Source of the DNA: Candidatus Eiseniibacteriota bacterium
GTDB taxonomy: Bacteria; Eisenbacteria; RBG-16-71-46; CAIMUX01; VGJL01
Reading direction: 5' to 3'
Length of the DNA stretch: 64,000 bases
NCBI GenBank assembly: GCA_034679345.1
Contig: JAXDAY010000028.1
Location: 71,876-135,875, forward strand
Position 1 is the first letter of the stretch, and every line of letters begins with the position of its first letter. A model generated the notes under the pieces. That model worked only from the letters and a program-made list of their open reading frames with translations, was not told the DNA's origin and made no database searches. This document shows, piece after piece, positions 2 to 20,896 of the stretch. The translations under genes and the position numbers were made by a program.

Positions 2-583
2 TCTGGTTCCACATTTCTCATCCTCGACCTCGAAGGCATCCCGCCCTTCCTCGACGGCCCGGAGGAGATCTTCCTCTGGGGCATGAAGGCATACGGGGAG
101 CAGTCTTCTCCGTACACTGCCGCGTACACGATTCCGGGGGAGACGGACGACCGGGCCACGTGGTTCGGCTTCCTCGAGAAGGCCGAAGCCATCTTCGCGA
201 CGTACGGCGACGTGCCGATCCTCCACTGGGCACCGTATGAGCGCGTGAAGCTCCACCTGTATCGCGAGCGCTACGGCGATCCCGACGGAACCGCCGCGCG
301 GATTGAGCAGTGCCTGTGTGATCTTCTGACGGTCTACTCCAAGGGTATCTCCGTTCCCCTCCCGAGCCGCAGCCTCAAGGTCGTCGAGAAGTACGTCGGG
401 TACGAGCGGTCGCTCGCCGGCAGCGGTGACTGGGCGGTCGCGCAGTACATCCGAGCGGTGGAGACGGAGGATCGAGAGGACGCCATGAGTCGCGTCCGTG
501 ACGTCCTCCGCTACAACGAGGAGGATCTCGACGCGACCTGGGCCGTGTTCCAGTGGTTACGGGGGCAGTTGTCGCGACCGTAG
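2..583 (+). CDS. RNase H-like (DnaQ-fold) 3'-5' exonuclease domain protein, RecB/TM0106-family-like; 5'-truncated by the window edge
   Basis: The frame is open from nt 2 and reads ..ILDLEGIPPF (DxE exo motif I) before ORF 83..583. HWAPYE and YNEEDLDATW (Y-x3-D exo motif III) are typical of the PF13482-like RNase_H_2 domain. Confidence 0.65.
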   Translation, partial: SGSTFLILDLEGIPPFLDGPEEIFLWGMKAYGEQSSPYTAAYTIPGETDDRATWFGFLEKAEAIFATYGDVPILHWAPYERVKLHLYRERYGDPDGTAARIEQCLCDLLTVYSKGISVPLPSRSLKVVEKYVGYERSLAGSGDWAVAQYIRAVETEDREDAMSRVRDVLRYNEEDLDATWAVFQWLRGQLSRP

Positions 584-2007: not shown

Positions 2008-2390
2008 TCAGCTCCAGTGACAAGAAGGATCGTTCGACGATCGTCTTTGGTGCGATTGCGATTGGGCTTGTCGGCGCCATCTTCTATTGGCTGGCATTCC
2101 GGCCTGGGCAGGTCCGGATCGGATGCCAAGCTCTGGTCGACCGTGCGCTTGCGAGCCGTCTCGAGCGCAATGGGTTCAAGCTGAGTCTGGACGGGAGATG
2201 GGTGAGGTGGGATGAGCAGTGCGTGGACGATCAAGGCAAAGGCATCTTCGCAAGGATGATGGCTGGCGAAACATGTGCGAGGATGGAACGGCGCGAGGTT
2301 GAGCCTGACCCCGAGGATCTGGAGAGAGACAGGTCTGCGGCTAGCGAGCTGTACGGTCCATGCCTTCGCCGTCACGGTCTCCGAGAGTGA
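2004..2390 (+). CDS. small hypothetical membrane protein
   Basis: ATGA start/stop overlap with the upstream gene (ATG at 2004). One TM helix, TIVFGAIAIGLVGAIFYWLAF. Preferred over the overlapping minus ORF 1929..2417 on composition and translational coupling. Confidence 0.4.
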   Translation: MISSSDKKDRSTIVFGAIAIGLVGAIFYWLAFRPGQVRIGCQALVDRALASRLERNGFKLSLDGRWVRWDEQCVDDQGKGIFARMMAGETCARMERREVEPDPEDLERDRSAASELYGPCLRRHGLRE

Positions 2391-2501
2391 AACAATCGGA
2401 TGCCTCCGGAATGGCATTCCAATCTTGGTAGACCATGACGCAGAAGTTACTGCCGTCGGTCAACCCGAGAACGAATACGTTCCCTATTGTCACTGAGAAA
2501 A

Positions 2502-2521
2502 CCGCCCACTCCTGGTGGGCG
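2502..2521 (-). terminator. rho-independent terminator of the DUF932-like gene
   Basis: Perfect hairpin CCGCCCAC-tcct-GTGGGCGG. On the minus strand it is followed by TTTTCTC, and it lies 16 nt past the stop of CDS 2537..3265. Confidence 0.7.
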
Positions 2522-2536
2522 GTCTGGATAAGGTGG

Positions 2537-3265
2537 TCAGAGCGCGAGCGCGCTCCGGAAGGTGCTGCTGAGCCGGAGCCCCGACTCCATCTGGACCCGC
2601 GGGCTGCGCGACTTCCCGACCTCGGTGAAGGCGTTGTAGAGCGACCAGGCGGTCCGGGGAGCGAACTCCTCGTGCCGCGGCCTCTCCCACGCCTCGATCA
2701 CCTTCGGCAGATTCGACGCCGGCAGGACGTTCCGCCGGACAGCCTCGACCAACAGATGGTCGGCTGACTCGGGCGAGAGCTCCCGCGCCTTCATCGCGGC
2801 GATCTCCTCGTGGATCCGGCTCTGCATGGAAGAGACCTTCGAGAGCATGCGGTAGATGAGGTCCGGGAGATCCCGGAAGACGTTGACCGTGTGCTTTCGG
2901 CTCGTGCCGACCTCCCCCGAGAACGCGAGGTTGTCGCAGCAGAAGACCCGGCTACCCGCGACGATCCCGACCGCGAGGGAGCGGTCGTAGCTCGAGCGCA
3001 GGCCGAGGGCGAGCGCGTAGTCGGCGTGGTCGCCGCCATTCCGGCAGGTGAGCACCCCGAACATCTGGAGCCCGTCGCGCGCGAGCGCGTAACGTGCATC
3101 GGTGATCGTGAGGCCGAAGCGTGGGACGTGGAGTTCGACCTCCTCGACGAAACGGCCGTATGGGACCGGGACGTACGAGTCGGTCTCCTCGGGAACGGGG
3201 ACGGCGGCGAGGTCGGCCTTCGTGGCCTCCCAGCCGCCGCGATGCAGGACGAGCTGACCGGGCAT
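2537..3265 (-). CDS. phage/plasmid-related hypothetical protein (DUF932/TIGR03299-like, tentative)
   Basis: 242-aa ORF with protein-like composition, followed by the terminator. Family assignment is from memory of DUF932-type proteins on integrative elements and could not be verified. Confidence 0.5.
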   Translation of the reverse strand: MPGQLVLHRGGWEATKADLAAVPVPEETDSYVPVPYGRFVEEVELHVPRFGLTITDARYALARDGLQMFGVLTCRNGGDHADYALALGLRSSYDRSLAVGIVAGSRVFCCDNLAFSGEVGTSRKHTVNVFRDLPDLIYRMLSKVSSMQSRIHEEIAAMKARELSPESADHLLVEAVRRNVLPASNLPKVIEAWERPRHEEFAPRTAWSLYNAFTEVGKSRSPRVQMESGLRLSSTFRSALAL

Positions 3266-3286
3266 GGCCGGAATCCTCCTTTCGGA

Positions 3287-3727
3287 TCAGATCGTGGATG
3301 GGTCGAGCAGGCCCCTCTCGCGGAAGGAGAGGTACGCGGAATCCCCCGCGACGATGACGTGGTCGAGCACGTCGATGCCGAGGAGCTTCCCGGCGTCGGC
3401 GAGGCGGTTCGTGATCTCCATGTCGTCGTCCGAGGGCGCGACGTCCCCCGAGGGGTGGTTGTGGGCGAGGATGATCGCGGCCGCGGCGGCGTTGATCGCG
3501 GGACGGAACACTTCTCTGGGATGGACGATGGAGGCGTTCAAGCTCCCCACCGACACGGTCTCGATGCCGAGGACGACGTGGCGGGTGGTGAGCAGGAGGA
3601 CGAAGAAGTGCTCGCGCTTCGGATCCGACACGGACTTGCGGACGAGCCGCGCGACCTGCTCTGGGCGCGTGACGGCCGGCGGCTTCCGGCCCCGGTACTT
3701 GCGCGTCTTCAGCTCCGCGACGTACAT
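3287..3727 (-). CDS. radC: RadC-like JAB/MPN domain protein
   Basis: LAHNHPSGDVAPSDDD is the JAMM HxHxxxxxxxD motif characteristic of RadC. Start placed at an internal ATG (3727) preceded by GGAGGTG. Confidence 0.8.
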   Translation of the reverse strand: MYVAELKTRKYRGRKPPAVTRPEQVARLVRKSVSDPKREHFFVLLLTTRHVVLGIETVSVGSLNASIVHPREVFRPAINAAAAAIILAHNHPSGDVAPSDDDMEITNRLADAGKLLGIDVLDHVIVAGDSAYLSFRERGLLDPSTI

Positions 3728-3819
3728 GCGGACACCTCCTGGTTGCGACGGGAGGAAGAGAAGCGGGGCCTCCGGGAATCTCCCGAAGGCCCCTGACGAT
3801 ACGGACGGAAGAACACGGG

Positions 3820-4581
3820 CTACTCCCCCCGCCACGACTGGCAGTGCGCGAAGTACTCGCACTCCGTGCACCGCCAGGAGGGATTCGGGAAGAAGCAGCC
3901 GTGACCGATGGCCTGGCCGACGCCGTGGAGGAGTCGGGCGGTCCAGGAGAGATCCTCGACCGTGCGGCTGGTCTCGTGGCGCTCAAGCCGGGGCGCCTTC
4001 GTCTTCAGGAGCATGTCGAGCCGGAGCCGAGGGAGCCTGTGGTAGGAGAGGTAGAAGACGAGGGCGTAGGTCGAGAGCTGGAAGTGCCGGTCGAGGCCGC
4101 CCGCTTCGAGCGTCCGCGCCGCGGTCTTCAGCTCCACGAGCACGTCCCCTTCCTCGATGAGGTCGATGACCCCACGGAGGCGCGTGTCGAGGATCTCGCC
4201 CGTGAGCGGATCGACGAGGTCGATCTCGAAGCGCTGTTCGATGAGCTTGGGGCGCGTCCCGTCGGTCTCCTCGACGTAGAGGGCGAGCATCTCCCGGCCC
4301 TTCTCCGCGAGCGACTCCTTCGAGTCCTTCTCGCTGAAGACGATCGGGGCGAGGTTCGCCGCGTACCAGTCGGCCGCGAAGATGTCGATCACCTTCTCCG
4401 GCGTCGGCATACGGCCGGCGAGGCGTTCCCGCTGGAACCACTCCACGGCGGCGTGGACGGAGGAGCCGAAGGCGAGGGCGGCGGCGCGCCACGGGAGCGG
4501 GATGCGGTCGACGTACTGGAAACGGTACTTGAGCGGGCAGACGAGGTAGCACTGGACCTGGCTAACGCTGAGCGGCTCCAT
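3820..4581 (-). CDS. Cas4-like PD-(D/E)XK exonuclease with a C-terminal 4-Cys (Fe-S) cluster
   Basis: Has VDRIPLPW...VELKTAAR (the D..ELK core) and a C-terminal CFFPNPSWRCTECEYFAHC. Overlaps the upstream gene by 20 nt, indicating an operon. Confidence 0.8.
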   Translation of the reverse strand: MEPLSVSQVQCYLVCPLKYRFQYVDRIPLPWRAAALAFGSSVHAAVEWFQRERLAGRMPTPEKVIDIFAADWYAANLAPIVFSEKDSKESLAEKGREMLALYVEETDGTRPKLIEQRFEIDLVDPLTGEILDTRLRGVIDLIEEGDVLVELKTAARTLEAGGLDRHFQLSTYALVFYLSYHRLPRLRLDMLLKTKAPRLERHETSRTVEDLSWTARLLHGVGQAIGHGCFFPNPSWRCTECEYFAHCQSWRGE

Positions 4582-5224
4582 CGGGCACCTCCTGCAGGAG
4601 CCGGTCGATCGCCTGGGTCGCCTGCTGTTTCGTCACCTCCCTGAGCGAGGTCACGCCCAGGAAATCCTGCAGGTACTCGTGGGCGGCGTCGCCCTGGAGT
4701 CCCTGCCCGGCGAGGATGCGGAAGAGGTAGCGGCGCTGCGCCTCGGTCATGAGCGCGCCGTTGCCGCTGGCCCGAGGCGCGGGGCGGGGTCCTTCGGGGA
4801 GCGGGCGCTCGGGCGGGAGCGGTGCACCCGACCCGAGGTCGTGACCATTCGAGGCGAGGCCGTCGCCGTCCAGCTCCTCGAAGGAGACGATGCCGATGTT
4901 CACGGCATCTCGGAGGGCGCGAGCCTTCGCCCGGGTCTCGGCCATGCGGATCAGGTGCGGGGCGATGAAAGTCGAGACGTTCTCGGGACTCGCGTCTCCG
5001 ATCGCCTCGAACCTCCCCTTCGTCGTCTCGATCAGGGCCTTCGCGATCGCGGTGCGGCCGTTCTCGTCAGAGGGGATCTGGAGGAGCTTCGTCGCCACGC
5101 GCTGGAGTCCCTCCTCGTGGGCCTTCGAGAGGAGCCCCGGATAGGTGACGACGTCCTTCGTGCCGACGACGCGGCCGGTGCGGTCCTTGATCTCGATCGT
5201 GCGGATCAGGGCGTTCTGGTTCAC
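4562..5224 (-). CDS. hypothetical protein, putative phage single-strand annealing protein (Rad52/ERF-like, tentative)
   Basis: 220-aa ORF translationally coupled to the Cas4-like exonuclease, the usual SSAP+exonuclease arrangement. No diagnostic motif was confirmed. Confidence 0.55.
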   Translation of the reverse strand: MNQNALIRTIEIKDRTGRVVGTKDVVTYPGLLSKAHEEGLQRVATKLLQIPSDENGRTAIAKALIETTKGRFEAIGDASPENVSTFIAPHLIRMAETRAKARALRDAVNIGIVSFEELDGDGLASNGHDLGSGAPLPPERPLPEGPRPAPRASGNGALMTEAQRRYLFRILAGQGLQGDAAHEYLQDFLGVTSLREVTKQQATQAIDRLLQEVPDGAAQR

Positions 5225-5321
5225 GGCGGAACCTCCTTCGGTTGGTGGGGAAGATGGGTTGGCAAGGAACGAGCGGATCGTTCCCCTTCACCGTACGGAG
5301 GGAGCGGATGCTTGCGTACGC

Positions 5322-5355
5322 GGCGGAGGTGCGGTCGGTCTCACGGGCTGTGGAT
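5322..5355 (+). repeat. copy C of a conserved ~35-bp motif (GGCGGAGGTrnGG-n-GTCTCAC-n-CTGTGGAT)
   Basis: ggcggaggtgcggtcggtctcacgggctgtggat, in the divergent intergenic region between 4562..5224(-) and 5451..6446(+). Matches copies at 9127 and 11097. Confidence 0.6.
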
Positions 5356-5450
5356 ACCAAAGACGCGATCGACCTTGTGTGCTATTGTGACGGCCGGCTT
5401 GGCCATGAAGGAAACGCGGCCGGCTGGAAGCAGATTGTCCGTAGGTCGAG

Positions 5451-6446
5451 ATGGCACAGATAACGAGATCAGCGAGACTGCTCAAGAAGGCCGAGGCGGC
5501 GCTCATCAGCGCCATCGAGGTTTATAACAAACCCGCGTTCAGGTACCGAGAGGAGACGTTCGCGATACTCATGCTGAATGCGTGGGAACTCCTCCTCAAG
5601 GCGAAGCTCCTGCGGGAGAACAACAACGACCAGCGGTGCCTTTATGTGTACGAGAAGCGCAAGACGAAGACGGGACGGGTCTCCCAAAAGTCGGTGCCGA
5701 AAAAGAACCGGAGCGGCGGCACCCAGACCAAGGGTCTTGGGCAGGTCATCGTGGAACTCGACGCGGATGGCCGCACACGGCTCGCGAATCCGATCCGCGT
5801 GAACCTCGAGGCCATGACTGAGATTCGAGACAATGCCGTCCACTACTTCAATGCGAGCCCGCAGCTCGCCAAGCAAGTGCTCGAGATCGGTACCGCCTCG
5901 ATCAGGAACTTCATCGAGCTCGCTCGCCGATGGTTCTCGATTGACCTTTCATCGTACGGTCTGTACCTCATGCCCATCGGATTCGTCGCTGCACCGGCGA
6001 CGGTAACAGCGATCCCCGTATCTCCCGACGAGCGGAAGCTCGTTCAGTATCTCGCCGGGGTCATCGGGTCGTCACGCAGTGACCAAGATCGGGAGTTCAA
6101 CGTCGCCCTGGAGGTGGGACTCTCGTTCCGTCGTGCTCCGGCCGGTGCGGTCGCTGCCGTCGCGGTGACGAACGACCCGAACGCGCCACGAGTCAGGATC
6201 TCGGAAGACGACGTCTGGAAGTCCTACCCCTGGGATTACGTGGAAATGGTACGACGCCTGCGTACCCGCTACTCGGACTTCAAGACCACTTCGAAATTCC
6301 ACGCCATCCGCCGGCCGCTTATGGCCGACCCACGATATGTCCGCACGCGCTACCTCGATCCGGCGAAGCCGCGGAGCGGGAAGAAACACTTCTACAACAG
6401 CAACATTCTCACGGAGTTCGACAAGCACTACACCCTTCGGAAGTAG
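5451..6446 (+). CDS. DUF3644 domain protein
   Basis: N-terminal ALISAIEVYNKPAFRYREETFAILMLNAWELLLKAKLL matches the DUF3644 (PF12358) signature with its conserved (A/V)YN. Markedly lower GC than the flanks. Confidence 0.65.
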   Translation: MAQITRSARLLKKAEAALISAIEVYNKPAFRYREETFAILMLNAWELLLKAKLLRENNNDQRCLYVYEKRKTKTGRVSQKSVPKKNRSGGTQTKGLGQVIVELDADGRTRLANPIRVNLEAMTEIRDNAVHYFNASPQLAKQVLEIGTASIRNFIELARRWFSIDLSSYGLYLMPIGFVAAPATVTAIPVSPDERKLVQYLAGVIGSSRSDQDREFNVALEVGLSFRRAPAGAVAAVAVTNDPNAPRVRISEDDVWKSYPWDYVEMVRRLRTRYSDFKTTSKFHAIRRPLMADPRYVRTRYLDPAKPRSGKKHFYNSNILTEFDKHYTLRK

Positions 6447-7017
6447 CTCGTCCCTCGACACCCGTGGAGGCGCTCCGCACCGACGCAAACGTGCGCTTCG
6501 TACCGCCCGCTCCACGCTCCATGGCCAATGCCACCGCCAGCGCGTCGAACATGTGGAGCCAGTAGCGCTCCCCCGGCCTGTATCCCAGCGTCGGATGCGG
6601 CGGACCTTTCGGCAACAGGCGACGGAGATCCTCGAACCCCGCCCGGATGATGGCCTGAGCCACATCGTATTTGCGCGCGTGCGGATTCCCGACGAGGCGC
6701 CGCCGGACCTCCTGCGGGGAGAGTTCCACGACGCGTAACCCGAGCTCGCGCGAGCGGGCATGGAGCTCTTGGGTGATGACCGAGACGAGCGCGACCCGTT
6801 TCGTCGGGCGGTGGATCGGCTCCTCGATGGCCACGATCTCGGGACCATGGCGTTCGATGTAGGCGAAGATGACTTGGCGGGCCTGGTCGATGAGGTCGCG
6901 CGGCCGGCCGCCGTTGCGGAGCGTATGGACGCCGAAGCCGAGGAGGCGCGGACCGTGGATGACGGCCGCGCCCATCTCGCGCGTTCCCGGGTCGATGCCG
7001 AGGATGGTCGGTGTCAT
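6409..7017 (-). CDS. ruvC: RuvC-family Holliday junction resolvase
   Basis: ILGIDPGTREMGAAV (catalytic Asp motif), VAIEEP (Glu) and HMFDALAVALAME (C-terminal Asp motif). Confidence 0.8.
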   Translation of the reverse strand: MTPTILGIDPGTREMGAAVIHGPRLLGFGVHTLRNGGRPRDLIDQARQVIFAYIERHGPEIVAIEEPIHRPTKRVALVSVITQELHARSRELGLRVVELSPQEVRRRLVGNPHARKYDVAQAIIRAGFEDLRRLLPKGPPHPTLGYRPGERYWLHMFDALAVALAMERGAGGTKRTFASVRSASTGVEGRATSEGCSACRTP

Positions 7018-7164
7018 GGCGTCGGGCCTTTCGGTGCCCTCCCGAGATGACCGCGCGGCGTGCCCCGTCTTGCTCGGGATGCACGGCCGTCGCGGCGGCA
7101 GTCCGCAAGGAGATCTGCCTTTGGAGCCCGGCCTCAGGAGAGGCCGCGGGAGGGCGGTGCTTGC

Positions 7165-7659
7165 TCAGGCGTGCTCGCCCTGGTGGTGGAGGGCGAGAGC
7201 GACCGCGTCGAAGAGGTTGAGGAAGTAGCATTCCTTCCAGCGCCGGTCCTGCGTCAGGTGGACGCGCAGTTGCGGGAAGCGGGTCGCGACGGCGAGGGCC
7301 GTCTCCCGCTTCGTCGCGCGTCCGCTCCCGACGATCGCCTTGCGCACCGTCTGCGGCGCGTACTCGGCGATCTCGATGCGCGCGGTCCGCGCGATGCGGC
7401 GCGACGCACGGGCCAGGCAGTGGAGCGCCGCGAAGCCAGGCACGGGGTGGCGGTAGGTCGCTTCGAGGACGAGGACCCGGGGCCGGTAGGCACGAATCCA
7501 GTCGGCGACGAGCCGTCGGGCTTCTGCATGGCGGCGGCTGCGCGGGAGGAGTCGCAAGGGTCGGACGCCCGCGGCAACGAGGCGCGGACCCCGGAGGACC
7601 GCGAACCCGAGATCGCGGAGCCCCGGATCAAGGGCGAGGATCGTTCGATTCTTGTTCAT
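7165..7659 (-). CDS. RuvC-family Holliday junction resolvase, second tandem paralog
   Basis: Internal ATG at 7659 gives MNKNRTILALDPGLRDLGFAV, then VLVLEATYRH and NLFDAVALALHH. The long ORF extension upstream of that ATG is low-complexity. Confidence 0.75.
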   Translation of the reverse strand: MNKNRTILALDPGLRDLGFAVLRGPRLVAAGVRPLRLLPRSRRHAEARRLVADWIRAYRPRVLVLEATYRHPVPGFAALHCLARASRRIARTARIEIAEYAPQTVRKAIVGSGRATKRETALAVATRFPQLRVHLTQDRRWKECYFLNLFDAVALALHHQGEHA

Positions 7660-8179
7660 GGGCGTGGCGTTTGAGGAGATAGAGGAAGAGCGCGGTACGC
7701 GAGCGGCGGATCGCCGTCGCTGGGACCGCGAGGGCGCCGGCGAGAGCGCGCTGCACGACCGCGTCGGGATGCGCATCGAGGGCCGCTTCCAGGAGATCTC
7801 GGTGGTCGGATTCGCCGAGCGCACGCTCGACCTTCGCGATCGTGAAGAAACGCTGGGGCTCGGCTGGCGCATCGGGAACGGGATCCGGAATGGAGGCGCG
7901 ACGGATCCGGATGCGCGTCGCTCCGTCGAGCCGCGTCGCGTCGATGTACCGCGCGGCCCGGAGATGCCCGAGCCAGCTGCGGATCGTGCCTTCGGGGAGA
8001 CCCATCGCGGTGGCGACCTCGGCCGGGCGGATCTCGAGCTCGGTCGCCCCGGCGGGGAGGCGCGCGAGGAGATCAAGGTAGAGCCAGACCGAGGCCCGCA
8101 TACGCCGGAGGTGGAACGCGCGCGGGTGTTCGAGGAGGCGGCGGTCAAGCGTGATCGTGAACTCGTGGGGATGGGACAT
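7628..8179 (-). CDS. winged-helix DNA-binding protein, paralog B
   Basis: Starts at an internal ATG (8179). ASVWLYLDLLARLPAGATELEIRPAEVATAMGLPEGTIRSWLGHLRAARYI is HTH-like. Paralogous to 8145..8807, including the C-terminal tail. Confidence 0.55.
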   Translation of the reverse strand: MSHPHEFTITLDRRLLEHPRAFHLRRMRASVWLYLDLLARLPAGATELEIRPAEVATAMGLPEGTIRSWLGHLRAARYIDATRLDGATRIRIRRASIPDPVPDAPAEPQRFFTIAKVERALGESDHRDLLEAALDAHPDAVVQRALAGALAVPATAIRRSRTALFLYLLKRHAHEQESNDPRP

Positions 8180-8807
8180 GGGGTTCGTGGGAGAACTTCT
8201 CGAGGAGGAAGCGGAGGAGCGCGGACTTCGACGCGCGGATCCGCGACCGAGGCGTGAGGCGGACGCGCCGTACCGCGCGCCGCGCGACGGGTACCGGGTA
8301 GCGGGCGAGGAGGGCCGGAAGGTCGTCTCCGGCCTCGCGGCCGAGCGCCTCACGGGCTTCGGCGAGGAGCGCCGCCCCTTCCCCCGCTCCCCCTTCCCCG
8401 CATGCAGCAGCAACTCCAGGAGTTGCTGCTGCTGCAAGCAGCTTGCTGACAGGTACAACTCTCATCGAGGAGCCGCTCGCAGAGCCGGATTCCGGGGCTT
8501 TCGGCGCGGGAGACGAGGATGCACCGGGCCAGAATCGCAGTCGGATGACAAGGTACGGGGAGGGAGACGTGATCGCGATGAGACCGGAGCGGGTGAGTCG
8601 GGCGAGACCTTCATCGATCGCCGAGGCGGAAGCGGAGAGCTCGCTCGCGAGGCGGTCGCGGGTGCGGATGACCCTGCCCCGATCGTTCGCCGCCAGCGCG
8701 AGGGCGATGTAGAGCGCGAGGGTACGATCCACCCCGCCCTCCGGTATGCGTGCGCGTAGCGCCGCCGCGAGCACGGAGCGAAGACCGGCGAGGGACGGGT
8801 CCGTCAT
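8145..8807 (-). CDS. winged-helix DNA-binding protein, paralog A
   Basis: Its ATG (8805-8807) overlaps the TGA of the XRE gene as ATGA. DRTLALYIALALAANDRGRVIRTRDRLASELSASASAIDEGLARLTRSGLI is HTH-like. Confidence 0.55.
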   Translation of the reverse strand: MTDPSLAGLRSVLAAALRARIPEGGVDRTLALYIALALAANDRGRVIRTRDRLASELSASASAIDEGLARLTRSGLIAITSPSPYLVIRLRFWPGASSSPAPKAPESGSASGSSMRVVPVSKLLAAAATPGVAAACGEGGAGEGAALLAEAREALGREAGDDLPALLARYPVPVARRAVRRVRLTPRSRIRASKSALLRFLLEKFSHEPHVPSPRVHDHA

Positions 8808-9088
8808 GCGTCCGTCGTCTTCGTCTCGCGCCGCCCACGCGGGTACGGGCAGTAGAGGCCCGCATAGAGAGCCTCGGTGAGCGTGTCGAGCGCCTTCGCG
8901 AGCAGGAAGAGGTTCGGCACCGTGGGGAGCACGCGACCGCGCTCCCAGCTCGACACCACGCTCCGATCGTGACCGACGAGTTCCCCGAGCCTCCGCTGGG
9001 TGAGACCCGCGCGGATCCGGTAGTACCGGATCGCATTCGGGAACCGCTCGGGCACCGTCGATCGCCTGAGGGTGTACTCGACCGTCAT
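8804..9088 (-). CDS. XRE-family (Cro/CI-type) HTH transcriptional repressor
   Basis: LTQRRLGELVGHDRSVVSSWERGRVLPTVPNLFLLAKAL is a canonical XRE HTH. Divergent from the recombinase operon. Confidence 0.85.
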   Translation of the reverse strand: MTVEYTLRRSTVPERFPNAIRYYRIRAGLTQRRLGELVGHDRSVVSSWERGRVLPTVPNLFLLAKALDTLTEALYAGLYCPYPRGRRETKTTDA

Positions 9089-9126
9089 GGCCCCACCCTA
9101 GCGGATACCAGGGAAACCGGAAGAGG

Positions 9127-9202
9127 GGTGGAGGTGAGACCTCTCTCACCCCCCTGTGGATAGGAGATTTGCCCACAGGGAGGTGATATCCCCTTCACCT
9201 CC
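9127..9202 (+). promoter_or_regulatory. divergent promoter/operator region; includes copy A of the ~35-bp motif
   Basis: Three inverted repeats: GGTGAGA-n4-TCTCACC (9133-9150), CCCTGTGG-n13-CCACAGGG (9152-9180) and GGAGGTGA-n8-TCACCTCC (9179-9202). Lies between the XRE repressor (-) and ORF 9247 plus the recombinase (+). Confidence 0.6.
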
Positions 9203-9246
9203 GCCGCCTACGACGTCCTCACGCGGCGCGGCATGCTGGGGTCGCC

Positions 9247-9432
9247 ATGCTCACGCAGAAGGCCATCGACGACCTCAAGGCGATCTGGCTCCGGAAGTAC
9301 GGGGAGCAGCTCACGGACGCGGAGGCGTGGGAGATGGGCAACCGCCTTCTCCGCGTCTTCGCCGTCCTCCTGCGTGCCCCCATGCCGAAGCGGGACGAGA
9401 AGGTTCGAACCGCGTCCACGAGCCTGTATTGA
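9247..9432 (+). CDS. small hypothetical protein (Cro-like or recombination directionality factor candidate)
   Basis: 61-aa ORF with balanced composition, immediately upstream of and co-directional with the serine recombinase, and divergent from the XRE gene. Confidence 0.45.
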   Translation: MLTQKAIDDLKAIWLRKYGEQLTDAEAWEMGNRLLRVFAVLLRAPMPKRDEKVRTASTSLY

Positions 9433-9486
9433 CGTGCTGCGGAACTTAATTCTACGATTCCTCCCTCGAGCATTGATCCCACGCCC

Positions 9487-11049
9487 GTGCCCCGCTACTT
9501 CCTCTACGCCCGCAAGTCGTCCGAATCCGAAGACCGCCAGGTCCTCTCGATCGACTCCCAGATCCGAGAGCTGACGGCGTACGCACACGCGCAGGGATTC
9601 GACATCGCGTCGGTCCTCTCGGAGTCGCGATCCGCGAAGGCGCCGGGGCGACCAGTCTTCGGGGAGATGATGACCGCGATCGCGCGCGGGAAGGCAGACG
9701 CGGTCCTCTGCTGGAAGCTCGACCGCCTCGCGCGCAACCCGGTCGACGGCGCCGCGCTCATCTGGGCCGTCGACGAGGGCAAGCTCAAGCAGATCGCGAC
9801 GCGCGACCGGGCCTTCGCGAACACCGGGAACGACAAGTTCTGGATGCAGCTCGAGTTCGGCATGGCGAAGAAGTACGTCGACGACCTCTCCGACAACGTG
9901 AAGCGCGGCAATCGGGCGAAACTCGAGCAGGGGTGGCTCCCCGGCGTGCCGCCGCTCGGGTACGTGAACGACCTGGCCACGAAGACGATCGTCAAGGACC
10001 CCGCGCGCTTCGACCTCGTCCGGCAGATGTGGGACCTCGTCCTCAAGGGCTGGTCGCCACCCGACGTCCTCCTCGTCGCGAACGAGGACTGGGGCTTCCG
10101 CACGCGGCAGTACCGCAAGAAGGGCGGCGGCCGGCTGCAGCGGAGCTACTTCTACCACATGCTCGCCGATCCCTTCTACTACGGCCTCATCCACCGCAGC
10201 GGCGAGACGTACCCCGGGGCGCATCCTCCGATGGTCTCGAAGGACGAGTTCGATCAGGTCCAGGAGATGCTCGGCCGGCCGAACCGCAGCCCGAAGCCCC
10301 AGCGCACCTTCGCCTTCACGGGCCTCATTCGCTGCGGGGAGTGCGGCGCCGCGATCACAGCGGAGGAGAAGGTCAACCGCCGCTACGGCTATCGCTACTG
10401 CTACTACCACTGCACGCGGCGCAAGCACGGAACGACCTGCCGTCAGGACGCCATCCGCGTCGACCGGCTCGAGACGCAGATCCGGTGCGAACTCCGGCGC
10501 ATCGCGATCGATGACGACGTCCGCGACTGGGCCATCGCGAACCTGCGGAGCGTCCATGAGCAGGAGACGCGCTCCCGCCAGGCGACGGATGTCTCGCTCG
10601 ACGCCGCCCTACGGGATGCGCAGAAGCGGCGCGACGCCCTCGTCGACCTGCGGCTGCGGGGCCTCCTCACGGATGCGGAGTTCCTGCCGAAGAAGCAGGC
10701 ATTGGTGGAAGAGGAGCTCCGTCTCCGGGAGCGTCTGACCGACTCCGACGGACGCGGCACCCACTGGTTAGAACTAGCCGAACGGGCCTTTCTCTTCGCG
10801 AATCAGGCCTTGAAACGCTTCAATACGGGGTCGCTCGAAGAGAAGCGCGAGATCCTCGTCGCGCTCGGTTCGAACTTTCTCCTCGAGGGCGGAAACCTGC
10901 GAATTCAGCTGCAAAAACCCTTCCACCTGATCGCGGAGGGGTCTCGAAATTCAAGTTGGCTCGGCATCGTGGACGGAGTTAGAACCTTCTTCGCTAACCA
11001 TCCACGTTTCATTCGATGGCCGTCGTTCTGTCTGCCGATCGCTGCGTGA
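9487..11049 (+). CDS. large serine recombinase (integrase)
   Basis: N-terminal resolvase domain YFLYARKSSESEDRQ with the catalytic Ser, a recombinase domain, a zinc ribbon (CGECG...CYYHC) and a C-terminal coiled-coil. 520 aa. Confidence 0.95.
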   Translation: MPRYFLYARKSSESEDRQVLSIDSQIRELTAYAHAQGFDIASVLSESRSAKAPGRPVFGEMMTAIARGKADAVLCWKLDRLARNPVDGAALIWAVDEGKLKQIATRDRAFANTGNDKFWMQLEFGMAKKYVDDLSDNVKRGNRAKLEQGWLPGVPPLGYVNDLATKTIVKDPARFDLVRQMWDLVLKGWSPPDVLLVANEDWGFRTRQYRKKGGGRLQRSYFYHMLADPFYYGLIHRSGETYPGAHPPMVSKDEFDQVQEMLGRPNRSPKPQRTFAFTGLIRCGECGAAITAEEKVNRRYGYRYCYYHCTRRKHGTTCRQDAIRVDRLETQIRCELRRIAIDDDVRDWAIANLRSVHEQETRSRQATDVSLDAALRDAQKRRDALVDLRLRGLLTDAEFLPKKQALVEEELRLRERLTDSDGRGTHWLELAERAFLFANQALKRFNTGSLEEKREILVALGSNFLLEGGNLRIQLQKPFHLIAEGSRNSSWLGIVDGVRTFFANHPRFIRWPSFCLPIAA

Positions 11050-11096
11050 TGTCATCATGCCACCAGCATACGATTCCGGTATGCGGGTGCGTAGGT

Positions 11097-11131
11097 GGCG
11101 GAGGTAAGGGGTGTCTCACCTCCCTGTGGAT
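11097..11131 (+). repeat. copy B of the ~35-bp motif, 48 bp past the recombinase stop (candidate att/recombinase-binding half-site or distal operator)
   Basis: ggcggaggtaaggggtgtctcacctccctgtggat. Same GGAGGT-to-TGTGGAT spacing (25 nt) as copy A. It has the CCCTGTGG left arm but lacks the CCACAGGG partner. Confidence 0.6.
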
Positions 11132-11249
11132 TCTCGGGCTAGTCCCGCACGAGAGACTGTAAGATGGCCCTGGTGAATCTGCAGGCGCTGATCGTGCCCG
11201 CAATCTCAGTCTGGCAAGACGCCTTTACGGGGCCTCATTGGAGCCCTGG

Positions 11250-12920
11250 TCATCTCAGAGATTCCACAATTGCGCGAAACGACTGCGCCAGCTCAGGAGC
11301 GCCGTCGAGCCAGGCCATTACGAGAATCGGGTTACCAGACGTACGGGGTATGCACACTGTCTCATAGGTATACGCGTAGTCTGCCGTCGTCACCCCCGGC
11401 TTGGTATGCAGTGTGAGGTGGGAGCTAGCAATGCCGCCAATATCCCATACTGATGAGGAGGTCACTTCGTAGTTTGGATTGTGGGCTGTGAAGAATCTGC
11501 TACAGTTCTCCATAGTTGAAAAGTCAAAGGTCGTCGCACTTGCATCAATGACGATTACGCGACCCGCGCCATGATAGTCTTCAAGCCCAGACACATGAGT
11601 GCCACCGATATCCCACGCAATACTGAAGTTAGGCGGGTATCGGAAAGTGAAGTCTTGTTTCGAATCGGTGTACGTGAGCCAGTCGCCCGGAACCGTCGAC
11701 GTGTTCGTTGCTGAGACCTTCAGGGATGCAAGGATGCTCTGGACGATACGGTGCATGCCGTCCGCCTGGGCAGCGGGGAGGCCGCCGTCAGCAGCGACGA
11801 TTTCGTCGACAACATCGCCCACCACGAGGCTTCCTCCCTCTGGGAGATCGAGAAGGTACGAGACGCCGATCAACGGCGGGTTAGCACGAAGACGCGTGAA
11901 GGTGTTGTGCCCAATAGTCACCGTCGACAGACGGTCGCTCGCAACATCCCTGAGGTAGTCCTCGACACCATCGTCCCGAAGAACGAGGGAGACTGGGGAC
12001 ACAGGCGAACCTTCAAATGCGTAGGTCGCGCCCCTGGGCTGCAGATGAATCACGGTGACATATCCAGACGCCTCGACGAGATCCCAATCTTGCGGGTATC
12101 GAAACGAGAATCCGCGCGCATCCGTATGGATCTGCCAATCGTTCGTGAGGGCTTCGACGGCGCCCGCATCGGTGAACGATTGCAGAATGCCCTCAAAGGC
12201 ATCTAGCTTCTCCTTCGTGCTGGTCAGTCCGACGTACGCCGCGCAGGCGTCCTTTACGGTCATGTCACCCGTCGCGATGGCATCGATCGGTGGGCCTTCA
12301 TCGGTGAACGCGATGGTGAACCGATACTCCGGCGTCAGTGTGATGAACGAGACCGCGTAGCGCGGCCCACCCTCGCTGCCACCGCAGTCCTCACTTCGGT
12401 AGCCGCGGACACCTTGGGACGTGGTCATCCGTGACACCGTCGCACTGGGGTATGTGAGCCAGGATGGGATGTCTCCGCCGTCAATGTACGCCTCCTCCTG
12501 TACAACGCTGGTCTTCGTGACATGGGGTGCTAGTTCTGGCAATGAGGCCCGATCCTCGACGGTGATCTGATACCGTACCGGACCACGCTCGACCAAGAAC
12601 GGGTGGTAGGAGTCGTGGTACTCACTGAGTGCCCACGTCGCATCGTACGTCACCGCGAAGCCATAGTTGAGGTTGGTCAGACGCGTCAGTCCCGTGCCTT
12701 GCAGTGGGGCGATGATATACTGCACAGTGGAATCGGCTTCCGGCTCTGCCAAGGGCGGTGTCACGACGCCTATATTGGTGTCAGTGTTGGTATTATCACC
12801 CGTCGTGTTCTCCTGATGCTCCTGGAAATACCAGGCGCCAACGCCAACAAGCACCAGCGCGAGAGCAGCGGCGAGGTGTTGGAAAGTAATGATCCTCTGA
12901 CAGCTAAGCGAGTTCCTCAT
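11250..12920 (-). CDS. hypothetical exported protein (low-GC, likely acquired)
   Basis: ATG at 12920 gives MRNSLSCQRIITFQHLAAALALVLVGVGAWYF (signal/anchor) then an N/T-rich linker. About 52% GC against a ~68% background. Confidence 0.55.
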   Translation of the reverse strand: MRNSLSCQRIITFQHLAAALALVLVGVGAWYFQEHQENTTGDNTNTDTNIGVVTPPLAEPEADSTVQYIIAPLQGTGLTRLTNLNYGFAVTYDATWALSEYHDSYHPFLVERGPVRYQITVEDRASLPELAPHVTKTSVVQEEAYIDGGDIPSWLTYPSATVSRMTTSQGVRGYRSEDCGGSEGGPRYAVSFITLTPEYRFTIAFTDEGPPIDAIATGDMTVKDACAAYVGLTSTKEKLDAFEGILQSFTDAGAVEALTNDWQIHTDARGFSFRYPQDWDLVEASGYVTVIHLQPRGATYAFEGSPVSPVSLVLRDDGVEDYLRDVASDRLSTVTIGHNTFTRLRANPPLIGVSYLLDLPEGGSLVVGDVVDEIVAADGGLPAAQADGMHRIVQSILASLKVSATNTSTVPGDWLTYTDSKQDFTFRYPPNFSIAWDIGGTHVSGLEDYHGAGRVIVIDASATTFDFSTMENCSRFFTAHNPNYEVTSSSVWDIGGIASSHLTLHTKPGVTTADYAYTYETVCIPRTSGNPILVMAWLDGAPELAQSFRAIVESLR

Positions 12921-16935: not shown

Positions 16936-16987
16936 GTCGTACCTCCTTTGGGAAACACCAGTATGTTGTGAAGGGGCAAGCCGAGAG

Positions 16988-17644
16988 CTACCGAACAAGC
17001 GCGAACGTGGGAAGAACGGTGCCACAGACATTGTCGAAGCACGAAAGAACGAGAGTCTTCTGCCTCCAGGTGAGAACGTAGTAGACAAGGCTGGTATCAC
17101 GCCCGTATTGTGCTACACCCTGTTTGGCGGGCACTCCAGCAAGTTGCGTGTCGGTCCAGACAGGGACACCGTCCAGCGTGGACAGGTATGCGGTAACTGC
17201 AGGCTGAGCGTCATCGACGATATCGACGGTGACATAGGTGGAGCCACCTTCGTAGGGCACGGTGATATCACTGAGAAGGTGACCGTCGTAGGCTGCGCTG
17301 TTTATGGTGGTGTTGTCGGTAACATGGAGTGTGTCGTAATACCGGAATGCGTAGCCCCATGGATCGCTTGTATATGTAATCAATGATGATGGCGTATTGA
17401 CATTCGATATGGTGTCTGTGTTGCTAAGGGTATTGAGATTCTGATCGCCAGGGGTTGTGTTGAGAGTATTGGCGACAGAGTGTGTGTTGTTCAGGTTGCT
17501 GGTATTGGTGGTCACGACGATGCTCGTGTTCCTCCGGTCACGGTTCGGAAAATACACCGCGCCTGCGACGATAACTGCCAGGACGAGGACGATGGCCAAG
17601 ACGGGAAGTGAGGCGATGCCGCGAGGACTAGGGTGCTTCGGCAT
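16988..17644 (-). CDS. hypothetical exported protein with an N/T-rich linker (low-GC)
   Basis: ATG at 17644 gives MPKHPSPRGIASLPVLAIVLVLAVIVAGAVYF, then NTSIVVTTNTSNLNNT.... Same N-terminal architecture as 11250..12920 and 12976..14655. Confidence 0.5.
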   Translation of the reverse strand: MPKHPSPRGIASLPVLAIVLVLAVIVAGAVYFPNRDRRNTSIVVTTNTSNLNNTHSVANTLNTTPGDQNLNTLSNTDTISNVNTPSSLITYTSDPWGYAFRYYDTLHVTDNTTINSAAYDGHLLSDITVPYEGGSTYVTVDIVDDAQPAVTAYLSTLDGVPVWTDTQLAGVPAKQGVAQYGRDTSLVYYVLTWRQKTLVLSCFDNVCGTVLPTFALVR

Positions 17645-17801
17645 AGGTGGGAGGGTTACTACTGAGAGCACGGATCAGGTGGCCCCGATTCGATGCTGGC
17701 ACGGGCAGAGACGGACTTGCCGCGGGTGGAAGCCCAGCTACTATCAGCCTGACAGAATGACGGGAGGTGTCAAGACGATGGCATCGCCCTTCACGGCGTC
17801 G

Positions 17802-20537: not shown

Positions 20538-20896
20538 TTTCCTTTCTTCTTCTTCCGCTGCTCTTCTTCCTCCAGCCTCCGTAGAATCTCCCGGGGGTCC
20601 TTTCCCGTGTCCCGCATGCGACGGAGCATGTCCCTCACGCCTGGTGTCGCGTCAGCCCACGCCCGAACATCGGGGTCGATCCGTGTATCGAGCTTGGAAA
20701 GCTCCGGCAACGACGCCCCGACCTCTTTCAGCGCGTCCACCATCCGCTTCAGTAGAGGTGGAGGTGGCCTACGCCGGTCGTGCTCGATGTCCGACTGGTA
20801 CGCTGCGGAGATCTCCATCGTCTCTGCGAATTTGCGAAGCGTGATGCCGGCTTCTGTGCGTAAACGTCTGATTTCCTGCCCCAGAGTTGGACCCAT
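20534..20896 (-). CDS. XRE-family HTH transcriptional regulator, partner of ImmA
   Basis: IRRLRTEAGITLRKFAETMEISAAYQSDIEHDRR is an XRE HTH. The C-terminus is lysine-rich. Confidence 0.8.
   Translation of the reverse strand: MGPTLGQEIRRLRTEAGITLRKFAETMEISAAYQSDIEHDRRRPPPPLLKRMVDALKEVGASLPELSKLDTRIDPDVRAWADATPGVRDMLRRMRDTGKDPREILRRLEEEEQRKKKKGK

Follow-up and report, generated by a model that had tools for sequence, protein, structure and literature searches.

In staphylococcal SCC and SCCmec elements, a large serine recombinase (LSR) carries out both integration and excision. Neither conjugation nor virion genes are present in them. Their cargo varies and includes anti-phage defence, and the elements tend to line up in tandem at a single chromosomal site. 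SCC elements also supply DNA-metabolism proteins of their own, with a presumed role on the circle after excision. Other LSR elements interrupt genes: phage WO with sr1WO, SPbeta with SprA, skin with SpoIVCA and the fdxN element with XisF. These are prophages or derivatives of prophages with the LSR at the element edge, flanked by both halves of the target gene. For sr1WO, the target is a Mg-chelatase gene (PMC9203015). Phage satellites (PICI, P4-like, PLE) are small, lack capsid genes, and combine an integrase with a repressor and its divergent control region. Finally, integrative and conjugative elements typically carry DUF932 and RadC among their accessory genes.

We analysed a 64,000-nucleotide stretch of DNA (the window) from a Candidatus Eiseniibacteriota bacterium. 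Positions ~2500 to 11131 (~8.6 kb) are probably a single mobile genetic element, integrated and non-viral, from a widespread, apparently unnamed family. As we read it, the block is a self-contained, integrated mobile element with an LSR as its driver, and we class it as an SCC-like, non-viral integrative element. It consists of three modules. Module 1 is a leftward "arm" operon (a protein resembling single-strand annealing proteins, SSAPs; a Cas4-like exonuclease; RadC; DUF932). Module 2 is a leftward "core" operon (an XRE repressor, two DNA-binding proteins and two RuvC-like resolvases). Module 3 is a rightward operon, in which a 61-aa protein precedes the LSR at the right edge. Between modules 1 and 2 lies a cargo slot, here filled with a DUF3644/PDC-S19 defence-candidate gene. 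The features are, from left to right:

2496 to 2531, minus strand: intrinsic terminator hairpin (GCCCAC-N5-GTGGGC plus T-run on the minus strand) directly after the DUF932 stop, then the box-like TCTGGATAA (2523-2531)
2537 to 3265, minus strand: DUF932 protein, 242 aa, last gene of the arm operon (PF06067, 28 bits, cutoff 23)
3287 to 3727, minus strand: RadC-like JAB-domain protein, 146 aa (PF04002, E 1e-43; TIGR00608, 141 bits, above cutoff)
3820 to 4581, minus strand: Cas4-like PD-(D/E)XK exonuclease with four-Cys motif, 253 aa (PDDEXK_1, E 1.8e-27; PHROG "exonuclease", E 4e-23; PADLOC Cas4 models, E 3.7e-10)
4562 to 5224, minus strand: probable single-strand annealing protein, 220 aa, first gene of the arm operon, 20-nt overlap with the nuclease gene
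5315 to 5355, plus strand: repeat copy D (CGTACG...TGTGGAT), at the border of arm operon and cargo slot 1
5451 to 6446, plus strand: cargo gene, DUF3644 protein, 331 aa (PF12358, E 1e-45; PADLOC defence candidate PDC-S19, E 9e-125, full length)
6409 to 7017, minus strand: RuvC-like resolvase a, 202 aa (PF02075, 32.6 bits, cutoff 22.2; PHROG 159)
7165 to 7659, minus strand: RuvC-like resolvase b, 164 aa (PF02075, 42.6 bits)
7628 to 8179, minus strand: winged-helix DNA-binding protein, 183 aa, marker of the element family, without a Pfam family
8145 to 8807, minus strand: 220-aa protein, function unassigned, with a C-terminal motif in common with the 183-aa protein
8804 to 9088, minus strand: XRE-family (HTH_3) repressor (PF01381, E 1.5e-13), first gene of the core operon
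9120 to 9161, plus strand: repeat copy A, palindrome GGTGAGA-CCTC-TCTCACC plus TGTGGATAG, upstream of the XRE gene
9173 to 9212, minus strand: repeat copy B, head-to-head with copy A, 35 nt upstream of the 61-aa ORF
9247 to 9432, plus strand: 61-aa ORF directly upstream of the LSR gene, with the palindrome GGTTCGAACC (9402-9411) at its 3' end
9429 to 9458, plus strand: sigma-70-like promoter (TTGACG-18-TACGAT), 5' of the LSR gene
9487 to 11049, plus strand: complete large serine recombinase, 520 aa (Resolvase, Recombinase and Zn_ribbon_recom; PHROG 95 integrase, E 1e-77)
11090 to 11131, plus strand: repeat copy C, the right-end copy and last conserved feature

The genes named in the original prediction are all where it placed them (Pfam, PHROGs, PADLOC). 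It described them as mostly leftward, which holds for most but not for DUF3644, which reads rightward. Of its "two wHTH paralogs", only the 183-aa protein has a predicted winged helix (residues 21-92, pLDDT ~80 in a moderate AlphaFold model, with generic ArsR/CodY/TubR/AspA matches in Foldseek). Similarity does not extend beyond the 31-residue C-terminal motif that the 8145-8807 protein shares with it (39% identity, E 2e-4). The latter protein has a weak match to the replication initiator PHROG 270 (E 0.0066) and is conserved in the related loci L015, L018, L042 and L043. RuvC-like a and b are themselves paralogs (34% identity), and b is the core gene most widely conserved in related loci.

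The block recurs as a unit. It is colinear in unrelated contigs with differing flanks (L018, L042, L043 and L015); in the last three, protein identity is 41-87% and the contexts differ again. DNA homology to L018 (blastn) covers only window positions 2532-10941, and the flanks are unrelated; on the right, L018 continues with tRNA-Leu, ParA/ParB, TopA and DprA. One uninterrupted gene order in all relatives would have refuted the original prediction; instead, the flanks differ among copies. More distantly, the core (RuvC, wHTH, XRE, small ORF, LSR) recurs across several phyla. LSR relatives with the RuvC-wHTH-XRE-small ORF neighbourhood occur in Zixibacteria, Ignavibacteria, Gemmatimonadaceae and Planctomycetales MAGs, and the two marker proteins have 834 (the 183-aa wHTH protein) and more than 5000 database homologs.

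The left boundary, rightly called unclear before, is only bracketed, between 2418 and 2532: L018 homology begins at 2532 and does not take in the low-GC genes at 680-2400. The earlier start at 2502 falls within the terminator hairpin. This hairpin and its T-run immediately follow the DUF932 stop in the window, L018, L043 and L044, and together with TCTGGATAA, which has one mismatch to a DnaA box, it is the leftmost feature assignable to the element. On the right, similarity to L020 stops at 11131, right after the TGTGGAT of repeat copy C, and the earlier end coordinate is exactly the last conserved base of that copy. We therefore take repeat copy C as the right end, judging by sequence conservation. 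Block GC is above that of both flanks, in the window and in L018.

Cargo varies at a fixed position. DUF3644, by its sequence matches a candidate anti-phage gene, is absent from L018, L015, L042 and L043, where the same position holds other or no cargo: a 73-aa ORF in L018, and M23/FG-GAP/T9SS genes in L042 and L043. L043 also has three genes between XRE and the small ORF. Across modules, identities are uneven (LSR 41-69% versus arm 55-87%), which indicates ongoing modular exchange.

A different reading is that the block is a fixed, domesticated chromosomal gene cluster, such as a DNA-repair or defence locus, that is no longer mobile. The LSR protein is 100% identical, with the same neighbourhood, in two independent Logan assemblies, and block GC equals that of the host backbone. 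Att sites were not identified either: no direct or inverted repeat linking one element end to the other reached significance, and neither an empty site nor a circular form was found. These negative results count against the main reading as well. However, both Logan assemblies evidently come from the same population, related copies sit in differing genomic contexts and differing phyla, the LSR is intact with a conserved promoter, and the uneven module identities indicate exchange. We regard domestication as highly improbable.

Does the element come from a phage? Temperate phages commonly have, as the element does, an XRE repressor with a divergent control region, an integrase, an SSAP and exonuclease pair and RuvC-type resolvases, and most block genes have PHROG matches. 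The arm is the most phage-like part. As in lambda Red and RecET, the exonuclease gene overlaps and appears translationally coupled to a gene for a predicted SSAP-like fold with a Red-beta-like C-terminal bundle. But the exonuclease is a predicted Cas4-like Fe-S PD-(D/E)XK enzyme rather than lambda Exo or RecE; its four Cys are visible in the translation (a C-terminal C-x2-C-x5-C and an N-terminal Cys). The putative annealing protein matches no Pfam family, SSAP families included. Its AlphaFold model (pLDDT 65) matches phage SSAP/ERF/RecT models in BFVD with E values of 4.5e-8 to 1e-3 and low TM scores, and the likeness of its C-terminal 3-helix bundle to the Red-beta C-terminal domain is not significant. 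Homologs of its N-domain are present on 31 contigs of IMG/VR and in cultured phages of the Bacillus group. We thus call it a probable SSAP; for both this and the wHTH assignment, the models are of medium confidence (pLDDT 62-65) and the Foldseek matches have low TM scores.

Beyond the arm, the phage signal ends. None of the ORFs of the block matches a structural or packaging family in PHROGs or Pfam, as the original prediction had said of capsid, terminase and tail genes. Five independent colinear copies in differing contexts share one gene set without structural, packaging or lysis genes, which suggests a complete design rather than random decay. Searches with the wHTH core protein gave no relative in IMG/VR, among INPHARED phages or among PLSDB plasmids, and a search of IMG/VR with the LSR was equally negative. 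The element also lacks the primase/helicase replication module, terS, and the capsid-remodelling or other packaging-redirection genes that define known satellite families, and its integrase is a serine rather than a tyrosine recombinase. A decayed prophage, or a satellite that needs a helper phage to be packaged and to spread, is therefore an unlikely origin; the phage-like part of the element is the SSAP/exonuclease arm only. Among the three readings offered originally (prophage remnant, satellite, integrative recombination/replication island), the island stands: a discrete unit, colinear elsewhere with unrelated flanks, and with a complete LSR at its right edge.

Distant core relatives point to other partners. 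Often they adjoin a Replic_Relax relaxase, T4 (TraG/TrwB-type) coupling proteins and a tyrosine integrase that lies beside a tRNA gene, but they are never joined to capsid genes; their neighbours are conjugative or mobilisable machinery, as in IME, ICE and AICE. In contrast, relaxase, coupling protein and tyrosine integrase are all absent from the window copy and from L018, L042, L043 and L015. No replication initiator, primase, helicase, relaxase or transfer gene is recognisable in the window copy, so autonomous replication and horizontal transfer are conjecture.

A ~40-nt repeat marks the module borders. All four copies in the window lie in the block. Each combines a covarying palindrome with a DnaA-box-like TGTGGAYA. 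At the position of copy A, the palindrome and TGTGGAYAA occur in at least 14 related loci, and the stem covaries (86% paired, reached by 0 of 500 shuffles). Copy D has homologs at the same position in L018, L042 and L043, and B-type copies are present in L007, L018, L020, L028 and L043. Copies B and C form a 40-nt inverted repeat (85% complementary; score 51 versus a null maximum of 28). Copy C is missing in L042 and L043 and so is not universal. Across loci, the bipartite pattern is found 16 times versus ~4.4 expected, and perfect DnaA 9-mers 18 times versus 3.6, mostly at homologous positions.

The right-end copy also bears on whether the element stands alone. Rather than being autonomous, the block may belong to a larger composite island (more than 21 kb) inserted in comM, either as its integration/maintenance module or as one of its members. 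Copy C would then be an internal junction, and the outer ends would be the comM 3' fragment (~21.42 kb) and a point beyond the window's left edge. A truncated gene is indeed present: of a ComM/Mg-chelatase protein, 21408-21908 codes for no more than 166 aa at the C-terminus, and the 5' half of comM is absent from the whole 64-kb window. At the junction, an intact relative reads ...LVAAMNPCPCGFLGD, and the window reads MATQGCPCGFLGD. Positions 11121-11138 match 21425-21442 at 17 of 18 positions on the same strand, and the 13-mer TCCCTGYGGATTC is present only at these two places. M23/FG-GAP cargo like that at 14770-17671 is found inside related elements, a degraded LSR abuts comM' in L040, and the block lies within a larger low-GC, comM-associated island region and could be a module of something bigger. 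Phage WO LSRs offer a precedent for targeting the Mg-chelatase gene (PMC9203015).

The described gene-interrupting elements differ in that both target halves flank them; here the comM 3' half stands by itself, at a distance of 10.3 kb and beyond another island. Against the composite island, the XRE2x|comM' junction is kept in L017 and L078 with no element relative in the 10 kb next to it, a sign of a separate island family. The L018 copy lies beside housekeeping genes and has no comM nearby, and 0 of 14 genome loci have comM within 10 kb of the LSR. The 17/18 match ranks only ~10th-12th of 2556 windows and could be chance. We hold the composite island to be possible, though considerably less probable than a single element; the match between the right-end repeat and the truncated comM junction 10 kb away suggests a tandem island array. 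The L017 contig carries an arm-only remnant ~44 kb from its XRE2x|comM' junction.

The relatives of the LSR in the PDB are the A118, SPbeta SprA and TP901-1 integrases, with SprA and A118 the closest solved structures. Its best NCBIfam match is fdxN XisF, but with 101 bits against a cutoff of 375. The CcrB, CcrA and CcrC models match weakly (53-83 bits versus cutoffs of 700-900), so there is no sequence membership in SCC. The LSR carries a conserved C-terminal WLGIVDGVRTFF tail. Its promoter is the sole consensus match within 2300-11400, and most related loci have an equivalent TTGAC-N17-TAnnnT ahead of the LSR. In at least 20 loci, a homolog of the 61-aa ORF immediately precedes the LSR, and the GGTTCGAACC palindrome is conserved across loci; the protein, without a Pfam or PDB match, is a candidate directionality or regulatory factor. 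DUF932 identity is 85% with L018 and 71-87% with L042, L043 and L044.

From this architecture, we infer how excision, replication and regulation might work. The LSR would insert and excise the element, and the 61-aa protein would perhaps set the direction. The XRE repressor would keep the divergent XRE/LSR control region shut. The element-specific palindrome beside TGTGGAYA, in the control region and at each module border, would most likely be bound by the element's own DNA-binding proteins and host DnaA, as operator and/or origin. The excised circle would probably be maintained or copied, and the RuvC pair and the SSAP/exonuclease pair would process multimers or junctions.

Such an element would not be an SCC in gene content: two RuvC, two DNA-binding proteins, SSAP/Cas4-like, RadC and DUF932 stand where SCC has the Cch helicase or CCPol. 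Its target is not rlmH, and it occurs in uncultured, high-GC bacteria, among whose proteins are some with type IX secretion sorting domains. In function, by analogy, the element appears to resemble staphylococcal SCC: LSR-driven, cargo-bearing, without transfer genes and in a tandem island array. The family, with its swappable cargo and no virus-particle genes, is apparently undescribed.

Gene models for the element, which spans roughly 2500-11131 of the window (~8.6 kb), were built by GC3-aware ORF calling and start-codon context, and were tested against Pfam, PHROGs, NCBIfam and PADLOC. They give the following genes.

Genes of the element (window coordinates, strand, description)
2537-3265, minus, DUF932 (Pfam)
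3287-3727, minus, RadC (Pfam)
3820-4581, minus, Cas4-like PD-(D/E)XK nuclease (Pfam, PADLOC; C-x2-C-x5-C motif)
4562-5224, minus, 220-aa ORF (20-nt overlap with the nuclease gene; no Pfam match)
5451-6446, plus, DUF3644 (Pfam)
6409-7017, minus, RuvC-like gene a (Pfam; 34% identity to gene b)
7165-7659, minus, RuvC-like gene b (Pfam; 34% identity to gene a)
7628-8179, minus, unannotated 183-aa ORF (no Pfam match)
8145-8807, minus, unannotated ORF (no Pfam match)
8804-9088, minus, XRE/HTH_3 repressor (Pfam)
9247-9432, plus, 61-aa ORF, here the small ORF (no Pfam match)
9487-11049, plus, large serine recombinase (LSR), complete, with three domains

Against these four databases the gene list of the original prediction is correct save for two points. 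DUF3644 runs rightward. The "two wHTH paralogs" hold in part: a winged helix is modelled in the 183-aa protein (residues 21-92, pLDDT ~80 in the AlphaFold model), but the pair has in common just a short C-terminal motif. Foldseek matches of the 183-aa model are generic (ArsR, CodY, TubR, AspA). GC content is 61-71% in the block (2.5-11.1 kb), 55-58% in flanking stretches and ~65% in the window.

The 520-aa LSR carries a resolvase domain (PF00239, E 5.5e-20, residues 5-149), with PF07508 (Recombinase) and PF13408 (zinc ribbon) above cutoff. Its N-terminus, YARKSSESEDRQ, contains the Y-x-R-x-S nucleophile motif conserved in all relatives. The C-terminal tail is kept in relatives, and the nearest solved structures are A118 and SprA. 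By its domains the protein is a predicted member of the large serine recombinase (integrase) family. The small ORF is its partner and is always present. A conserved sigma-70-like promoter, the sole match of a consensus scan, lies ahead of the LSR gene (9429-9458). About 18 nt upstream of its -35, at the 3' end of the small ORF, stands a perfect 10-bp palindrome, GGTTCGAACC (9402-9411), which is kept in nearly all related loci although protein identity is 45-70%.

The two RuvC-like proteins match PF02075 at 32.6 and 42.6 bits (cutoff 22.2), and the D...E...(H/N)xxD positions are seen in their pairwise alignment. Both belong by sequence to the RuvC Holliday-junction resolvase family. They are not the housekeeping enzyme, judging by their scores, because these lie far under the bacterial RuvC equivalog cutoffs. 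The family of the nuclease is clear, and its gene runs in the same orientation as the overlapping 220-aa ORF. The two are a candidate two-component exonuclease-SSAP recombinase. For the product of that ORF, the putative SSAP, a model with pLDDT 65 matched phage SSAP, ERF and RecT models in BFVD by Foldseek (E 4.5e-8 to 1e-3) at a low TM of ~0.2. Cultured Bacillus-group phages and 31 IMG/VR contigs encode relatives of its N-domain. PDB sequence searches with this protein, the 183-aa protein and the 61-aa protein returned nothing significant. The DUF3644 protein matches the PADLOC defence candidate PDC-S19 over its full length (E 9.3e-125; residues 5-329 align to positions 4-327 of the 330-position profile).

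What kind of element is this? The original prediction had named a prophage remnant, a satellite or an integrative island. Capsid, portal, terminase, tail and lysis genes mark a prophage, and no ORF of 2500-11131 matches these or packaging families in Pfam or PHROGs. Phage satellites (PICI, P4-like, PLE) have a replication module and packaging-redirection genes; in the same databases the block has no primase, helicase, terS or capsid-size determinant. In the flanks, PHROGs matches are confined to two domains, an M23 peptidase and an MBL fold. The 183-aa protein has no relatives in IMG/VR, INPHARED phages or PLSDB plasmids, and the LSR none in IMG/VR, where the scans were pattern-seeded and may miss distant relatives. 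The earlier interpretation holds in part: the evidence favours an integrative island, and neither a prophage remnant nor a satellite is supported.

An ICE or IME has a relaxase (and oriT), and an ICE also a coupling protein and mating-pore genes. Such genes are found in relatives: in Ignavibacteria, Zixibacteria, Gemmatimonadaceae and Planctomycetales MAGs the core (RuvC, wHTH, XRE, small ORF and LSR) occurs together with a Replic_Relax relaxase, coupling proteins of TraG/TrwB type and a tyrosine integrase (present in related loci L003, L004, L006, L010 and L011), adjoining a tRNA gene in two loci. In contrast, tblastn with the proteins of these loci found no relaxase, coupling-protein or tyrosine-integrase homologs in the 64-kb window. 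In function the element comes closest to the SCC elements of staphylococci; by sequence its membership is limited to the LSR superfamily. A literature search on combinations of DUF932, RadC, serine recombinase, RuvC, relaxase and PDC-S19 brought up no account of such an element.

LSR-based scans recovered 14 genome loci and 24 metagenome loci. Locus L018 (206-kb contig) has the block complete and in unchanged order except for DUF3644, which is absent; its proteins are 58-85% identical. DNA homology is confined to window positions 2532-10941 and the flanks are unrelated, with tRNA-Leu, ParA/ParB, TopA, DprA and Mfd on the right in L018. L042, L043 and L015 are colinear with the block too, each in yet another context. 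Similarity to L020 stops exactly past the last repeat copy, at window 11131, where a convergent ATPase gene starts. The predicted right boundary of 11131, which reads ...CCTCCCTGTGGAT, is therefore accurate, and the left boundary, previously uncertain, is now bracketed to 2418-2532. A terminator hairpin directly follows DUF932 here and, in a form of its own, in every relative. The database contains 834 homologs of the 183-aa marker protein and >5000 of a second marker, so the family is abundant.

The attL and attR sites of LSRs consist of short imperfect inverted half-sites around a central dinucleotide at the ends of the element. Two candidates for the ends of the block were rejected. Terminal repeats fail, as the two borders (left, 2300-2540; right, 11040-11300), aligned locally in direct and in inverted orientation, score under shuffled sequences. 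A tRNA target fails as well: the window has no tRNA, and in L018 the junction of LSR and tRNA-Leu is secondary, because the L018 LSR is without the conserved C-terminal tail. There, tRNA-Leu(CAA) (L018 11468-11554) abuts a 3'-truncated LSR gene whose last codons are antisense tRNA sequence, which points to a secondary deletion or insertion that affected the right end of that element. In L003 and L006 no tyrosine-integrase direct repeats of the tRNA of at least 12 nt were found.

Several observations concern the left side. Logan contigs L045, L046 and L016, which were assembled independently from one population, break near window ~3817 (the nuclease gene end) and ~4940 (inside the SSAP-like gene), and an exact look-up did not find the DUF932 protein on record; this hints at strain-level variation of the left arm. 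The exact protein of the 83-583 ORF is not on record either. An arm-only remnant (SSAP-like, nuclease, RadC, DUF932) without core or LSR lies beside a transposase fragment in L044 (10001-12944), which shares a 1.33-Mb contig with L017, ~44 kb from that genome's comM fragment. Further left, the ORF at 83-583 (+) has an RNase_H_2 (TM0106-like) domain. The low-GC ORFs at 679-2417 have no family match, though 1369-2007 resembles a secreted repeat protein. None of these ORFs has a counterpart in any related locus.

Across phyla the neighbourhood recurs, with RuvC, wHTH and XRE leftward and the small ORF and LSR rightward. Elements of the window type have the SSAP-nuclease-RadC-DUF932 arm in place of the relaxase, coupling and tyrosine-integrase genes. 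The variable slot between arm and core holds DUF3644 in the window, a 73-aa ORF in L018 and M23/FG-GAP/T9SS secreted-protein genes in L042 and L043; in L043 a second insertion of three genes lies between XRE and the small ORF. The LSR is less conserved, and less evenly so (41-69% identity), than the arm (55-87%), which suggests that modules are exchanged.

A pair of genes, for a ~200-370-aa small protein and an M23-peptidase/FG-GAP protein, recurs within a few kb of LSRs in several phyla (window 14770-17671, minus strand; L004, L005, L006, L009, L035, L042). The larger protein bears a T9SS sorting domain in the window, L042 and several relatives. The pair sits in the first cargo slot, in the second or to the right of the LSR, and behaves as putative mobile cargo.

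The element also carries a repeat of ~40 nt, found in the block alone, with the consensus CGTAGG, a GC-rich palindrome, then CTGTGGAT.

Repeat copies (window coordinates, strand, position)
5315-5355, plus, copy D, at the cargo slot
9120-9161, plus, copy A, in the XRE/small-ORF intergenic region
9173-9212, minus, copy B, head-to-head with A
11090-11131, plus, copy C, after the LSR gene

Homologous copies stand at the same positions in L018, L020, L042, L043, L007 and L028, and the bipartite pattern was found 16 times across loci against ~4.4 expected. At least 14 loci carry, at the A position, a palindrome of 5-7 bp followed by a spacer of ~5 nt and TGTGGAYAA. The sequence of the palindrome varies and its complementarity is kept: in an alignment of 11 copies (ten from the A position, one from C), 86% of cells are paired, double changes occur in 6/6 pairs and 0/500 shuffles score as high. 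The palindromes look like co-evolving operators. TGTGGATAA and the DnaA-box consensus TTATCCACA are reverse complements. The loci (504 kb) contain 18 perfect DnaA 9-mers where 3.6 were expected, and most of them fall at positions A, B and C. Copy A lies at a fixed ~31-35 nt from the XRE start codon, and B likewise from that of the small ORF. The XRE repressor faces the small ORF and LSR across a conserved palindromic region.

We prefer to read the repeats as an operator and/or origin, at which the element's DNA-binding proteins would sit beside a host DnaA site, a reading that computation does not separate from two others. In one, the repeats would be recombinase recognition sites and not just operators. 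That would make the element a platform for cassettes, driven by the LSR: integron-like, though based on a serine recombinase, with sites that mimic both the DnaA box and the comM target, and able to swap cargo and even its own recombinase module. Variable DNA does start directly past the TGTGGAYA box of D, A and C, and the core of C is shared with the comM junction. B and C also form inverted ends, a 40-nt inverted repeat (85% complementary, score 51 against a shuffled maximum of 28), which encloses just the small-ORF-LSR pair and has no matching half-site at the block's left end. We consider this reading improbable. In the other, the repeats would be a structured transcript; an Rfam search for structured RNA gave no family at E<=1 save two chance matches. 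Two further candidates were rejected. Reading the TGTGGAYA box as -35, or box 1 (CCTACG) as -10, fails on spacing and partner hexamers in the high-GC copies, and the consensus scan yields the LSR promoter alone. A translational SD/anti-SD hairpin of GGAGGTGA/TCACCTCC would lie ~60 nt from any start codon.

Repeats of another kind occur as pairs of 24-32 nt, ~190-200 bp apart and each arm palindromic, in L004 (9393-9644), L010 (9406-9660), L011 (9397-9641) and L007 (9461-9710). They separate a gene for a short tyrosine recombinase (~250 aa) from the small-ORF/LSR operon, and are inverted in the first three loci and reported as direct in L007. This arrangement looks like a putative invertible promoter switch.

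To the right, 10.3 kb from the LSR, the ORF at 21408-21908 (+) encodes the last 166 aa alone of a ComM/Mg-chelatase protein. Intact relatives read ...AAMNPCPCGFLGD, the window ORF starts with MATQGCPCGFLGD, and the 5' half of comM is not in the 64-kb window. A documented case of LSR integration into a Mg-chelatase gene is phage WO (PMC9203015). In such comM-targeting LSR elements (sr1WO) both target-gene halves flank the element, whereas the window has the 3' fragment alone, and its one link to the block is a core shared at 17/18 bases. The junction (~21395-21445, ...AATGGCAACGCAGGGA-TG-TCCCTGCGG) recurs in L017, L078 and L040 beside a double-HTH XRE gene (window 20971-21414), with Gabija-like OLD and UvrD as defence cargo in L017 and Kiwa in L078. 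Junctions of this type are predicted to belong to a separate comM-targeting island family. The protein database holds many C-terminal comM fragments of 160-170 aa, so comM is presumably a recurrent integration hotspot. None of the other LSR loci has comM within 10 kb.

The 13-mer TCCCTGYGGATTC occurs in the window only in repeat C and, on the same strand, at the comM junction. It is part of an imperfect direct repeat (11121-11138 and 21425-21442) that matches at 17/18 bases with one gap and, as a pre-specified comparison, ranks ~10th to 12th of 2556 windows. The two copies bracket a 10.3-kb low-GC block (11.13-21.42 kb) without a recombinase of its own, which could be a second island, integrated beside the LSR element at the comM core. 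A tandem array, in which the LSR element would have entered the comM core first and the second island then the regenerated core, fits this match; we treat it as a lead, not a result. An ImmA/IrrE (Peptidase_M78) and XRE pair (19800-20896, minus strand) also lies on this side, followed by an MBL-fold protein (18570-19649) whose MBL domain gives it a match to PHROG 7043, annotated as "tail protein" (E 6e-57).

We propose the following mechanism. The LSR would integrate and excise the element, with the small ORF as candidate directionality factor, and the XRE repressor would hold this switch off. The excised circle would be maintained or copied from the A/B region with the help of DnaA and both DNA-binding proteins. 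Junctions and multimers could be processed by two pairs of proteins, RuvC and SSAP/nuclease, or these could promote recombination with resident DNA. Because the element has no transfer genes, it would spread in trans, by mobilisation, transformation or transduction.

If this is correct, small LSR-borne islands form an abundant family in poorly studied uncultured phyla, with marker-protein homologs in the hundreds to thousands, and shuttle secreted-protein and defence-candidate cargo without visible phage or conjugation machinery. The family would be a source of new pairs of LSR and accessory protein, possibly with the cognate small directionality factor beside the integrase. Its fixed modules and defined cargo slots would offer a comparative framework for how "transfer-less" islands spread. 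The conserved non-coding palindrome and DnaA box could tie control of the element to the host replication initiator, and the repeat architecture, with its possible link to comM and DnaA, is the part that deserves experiment.
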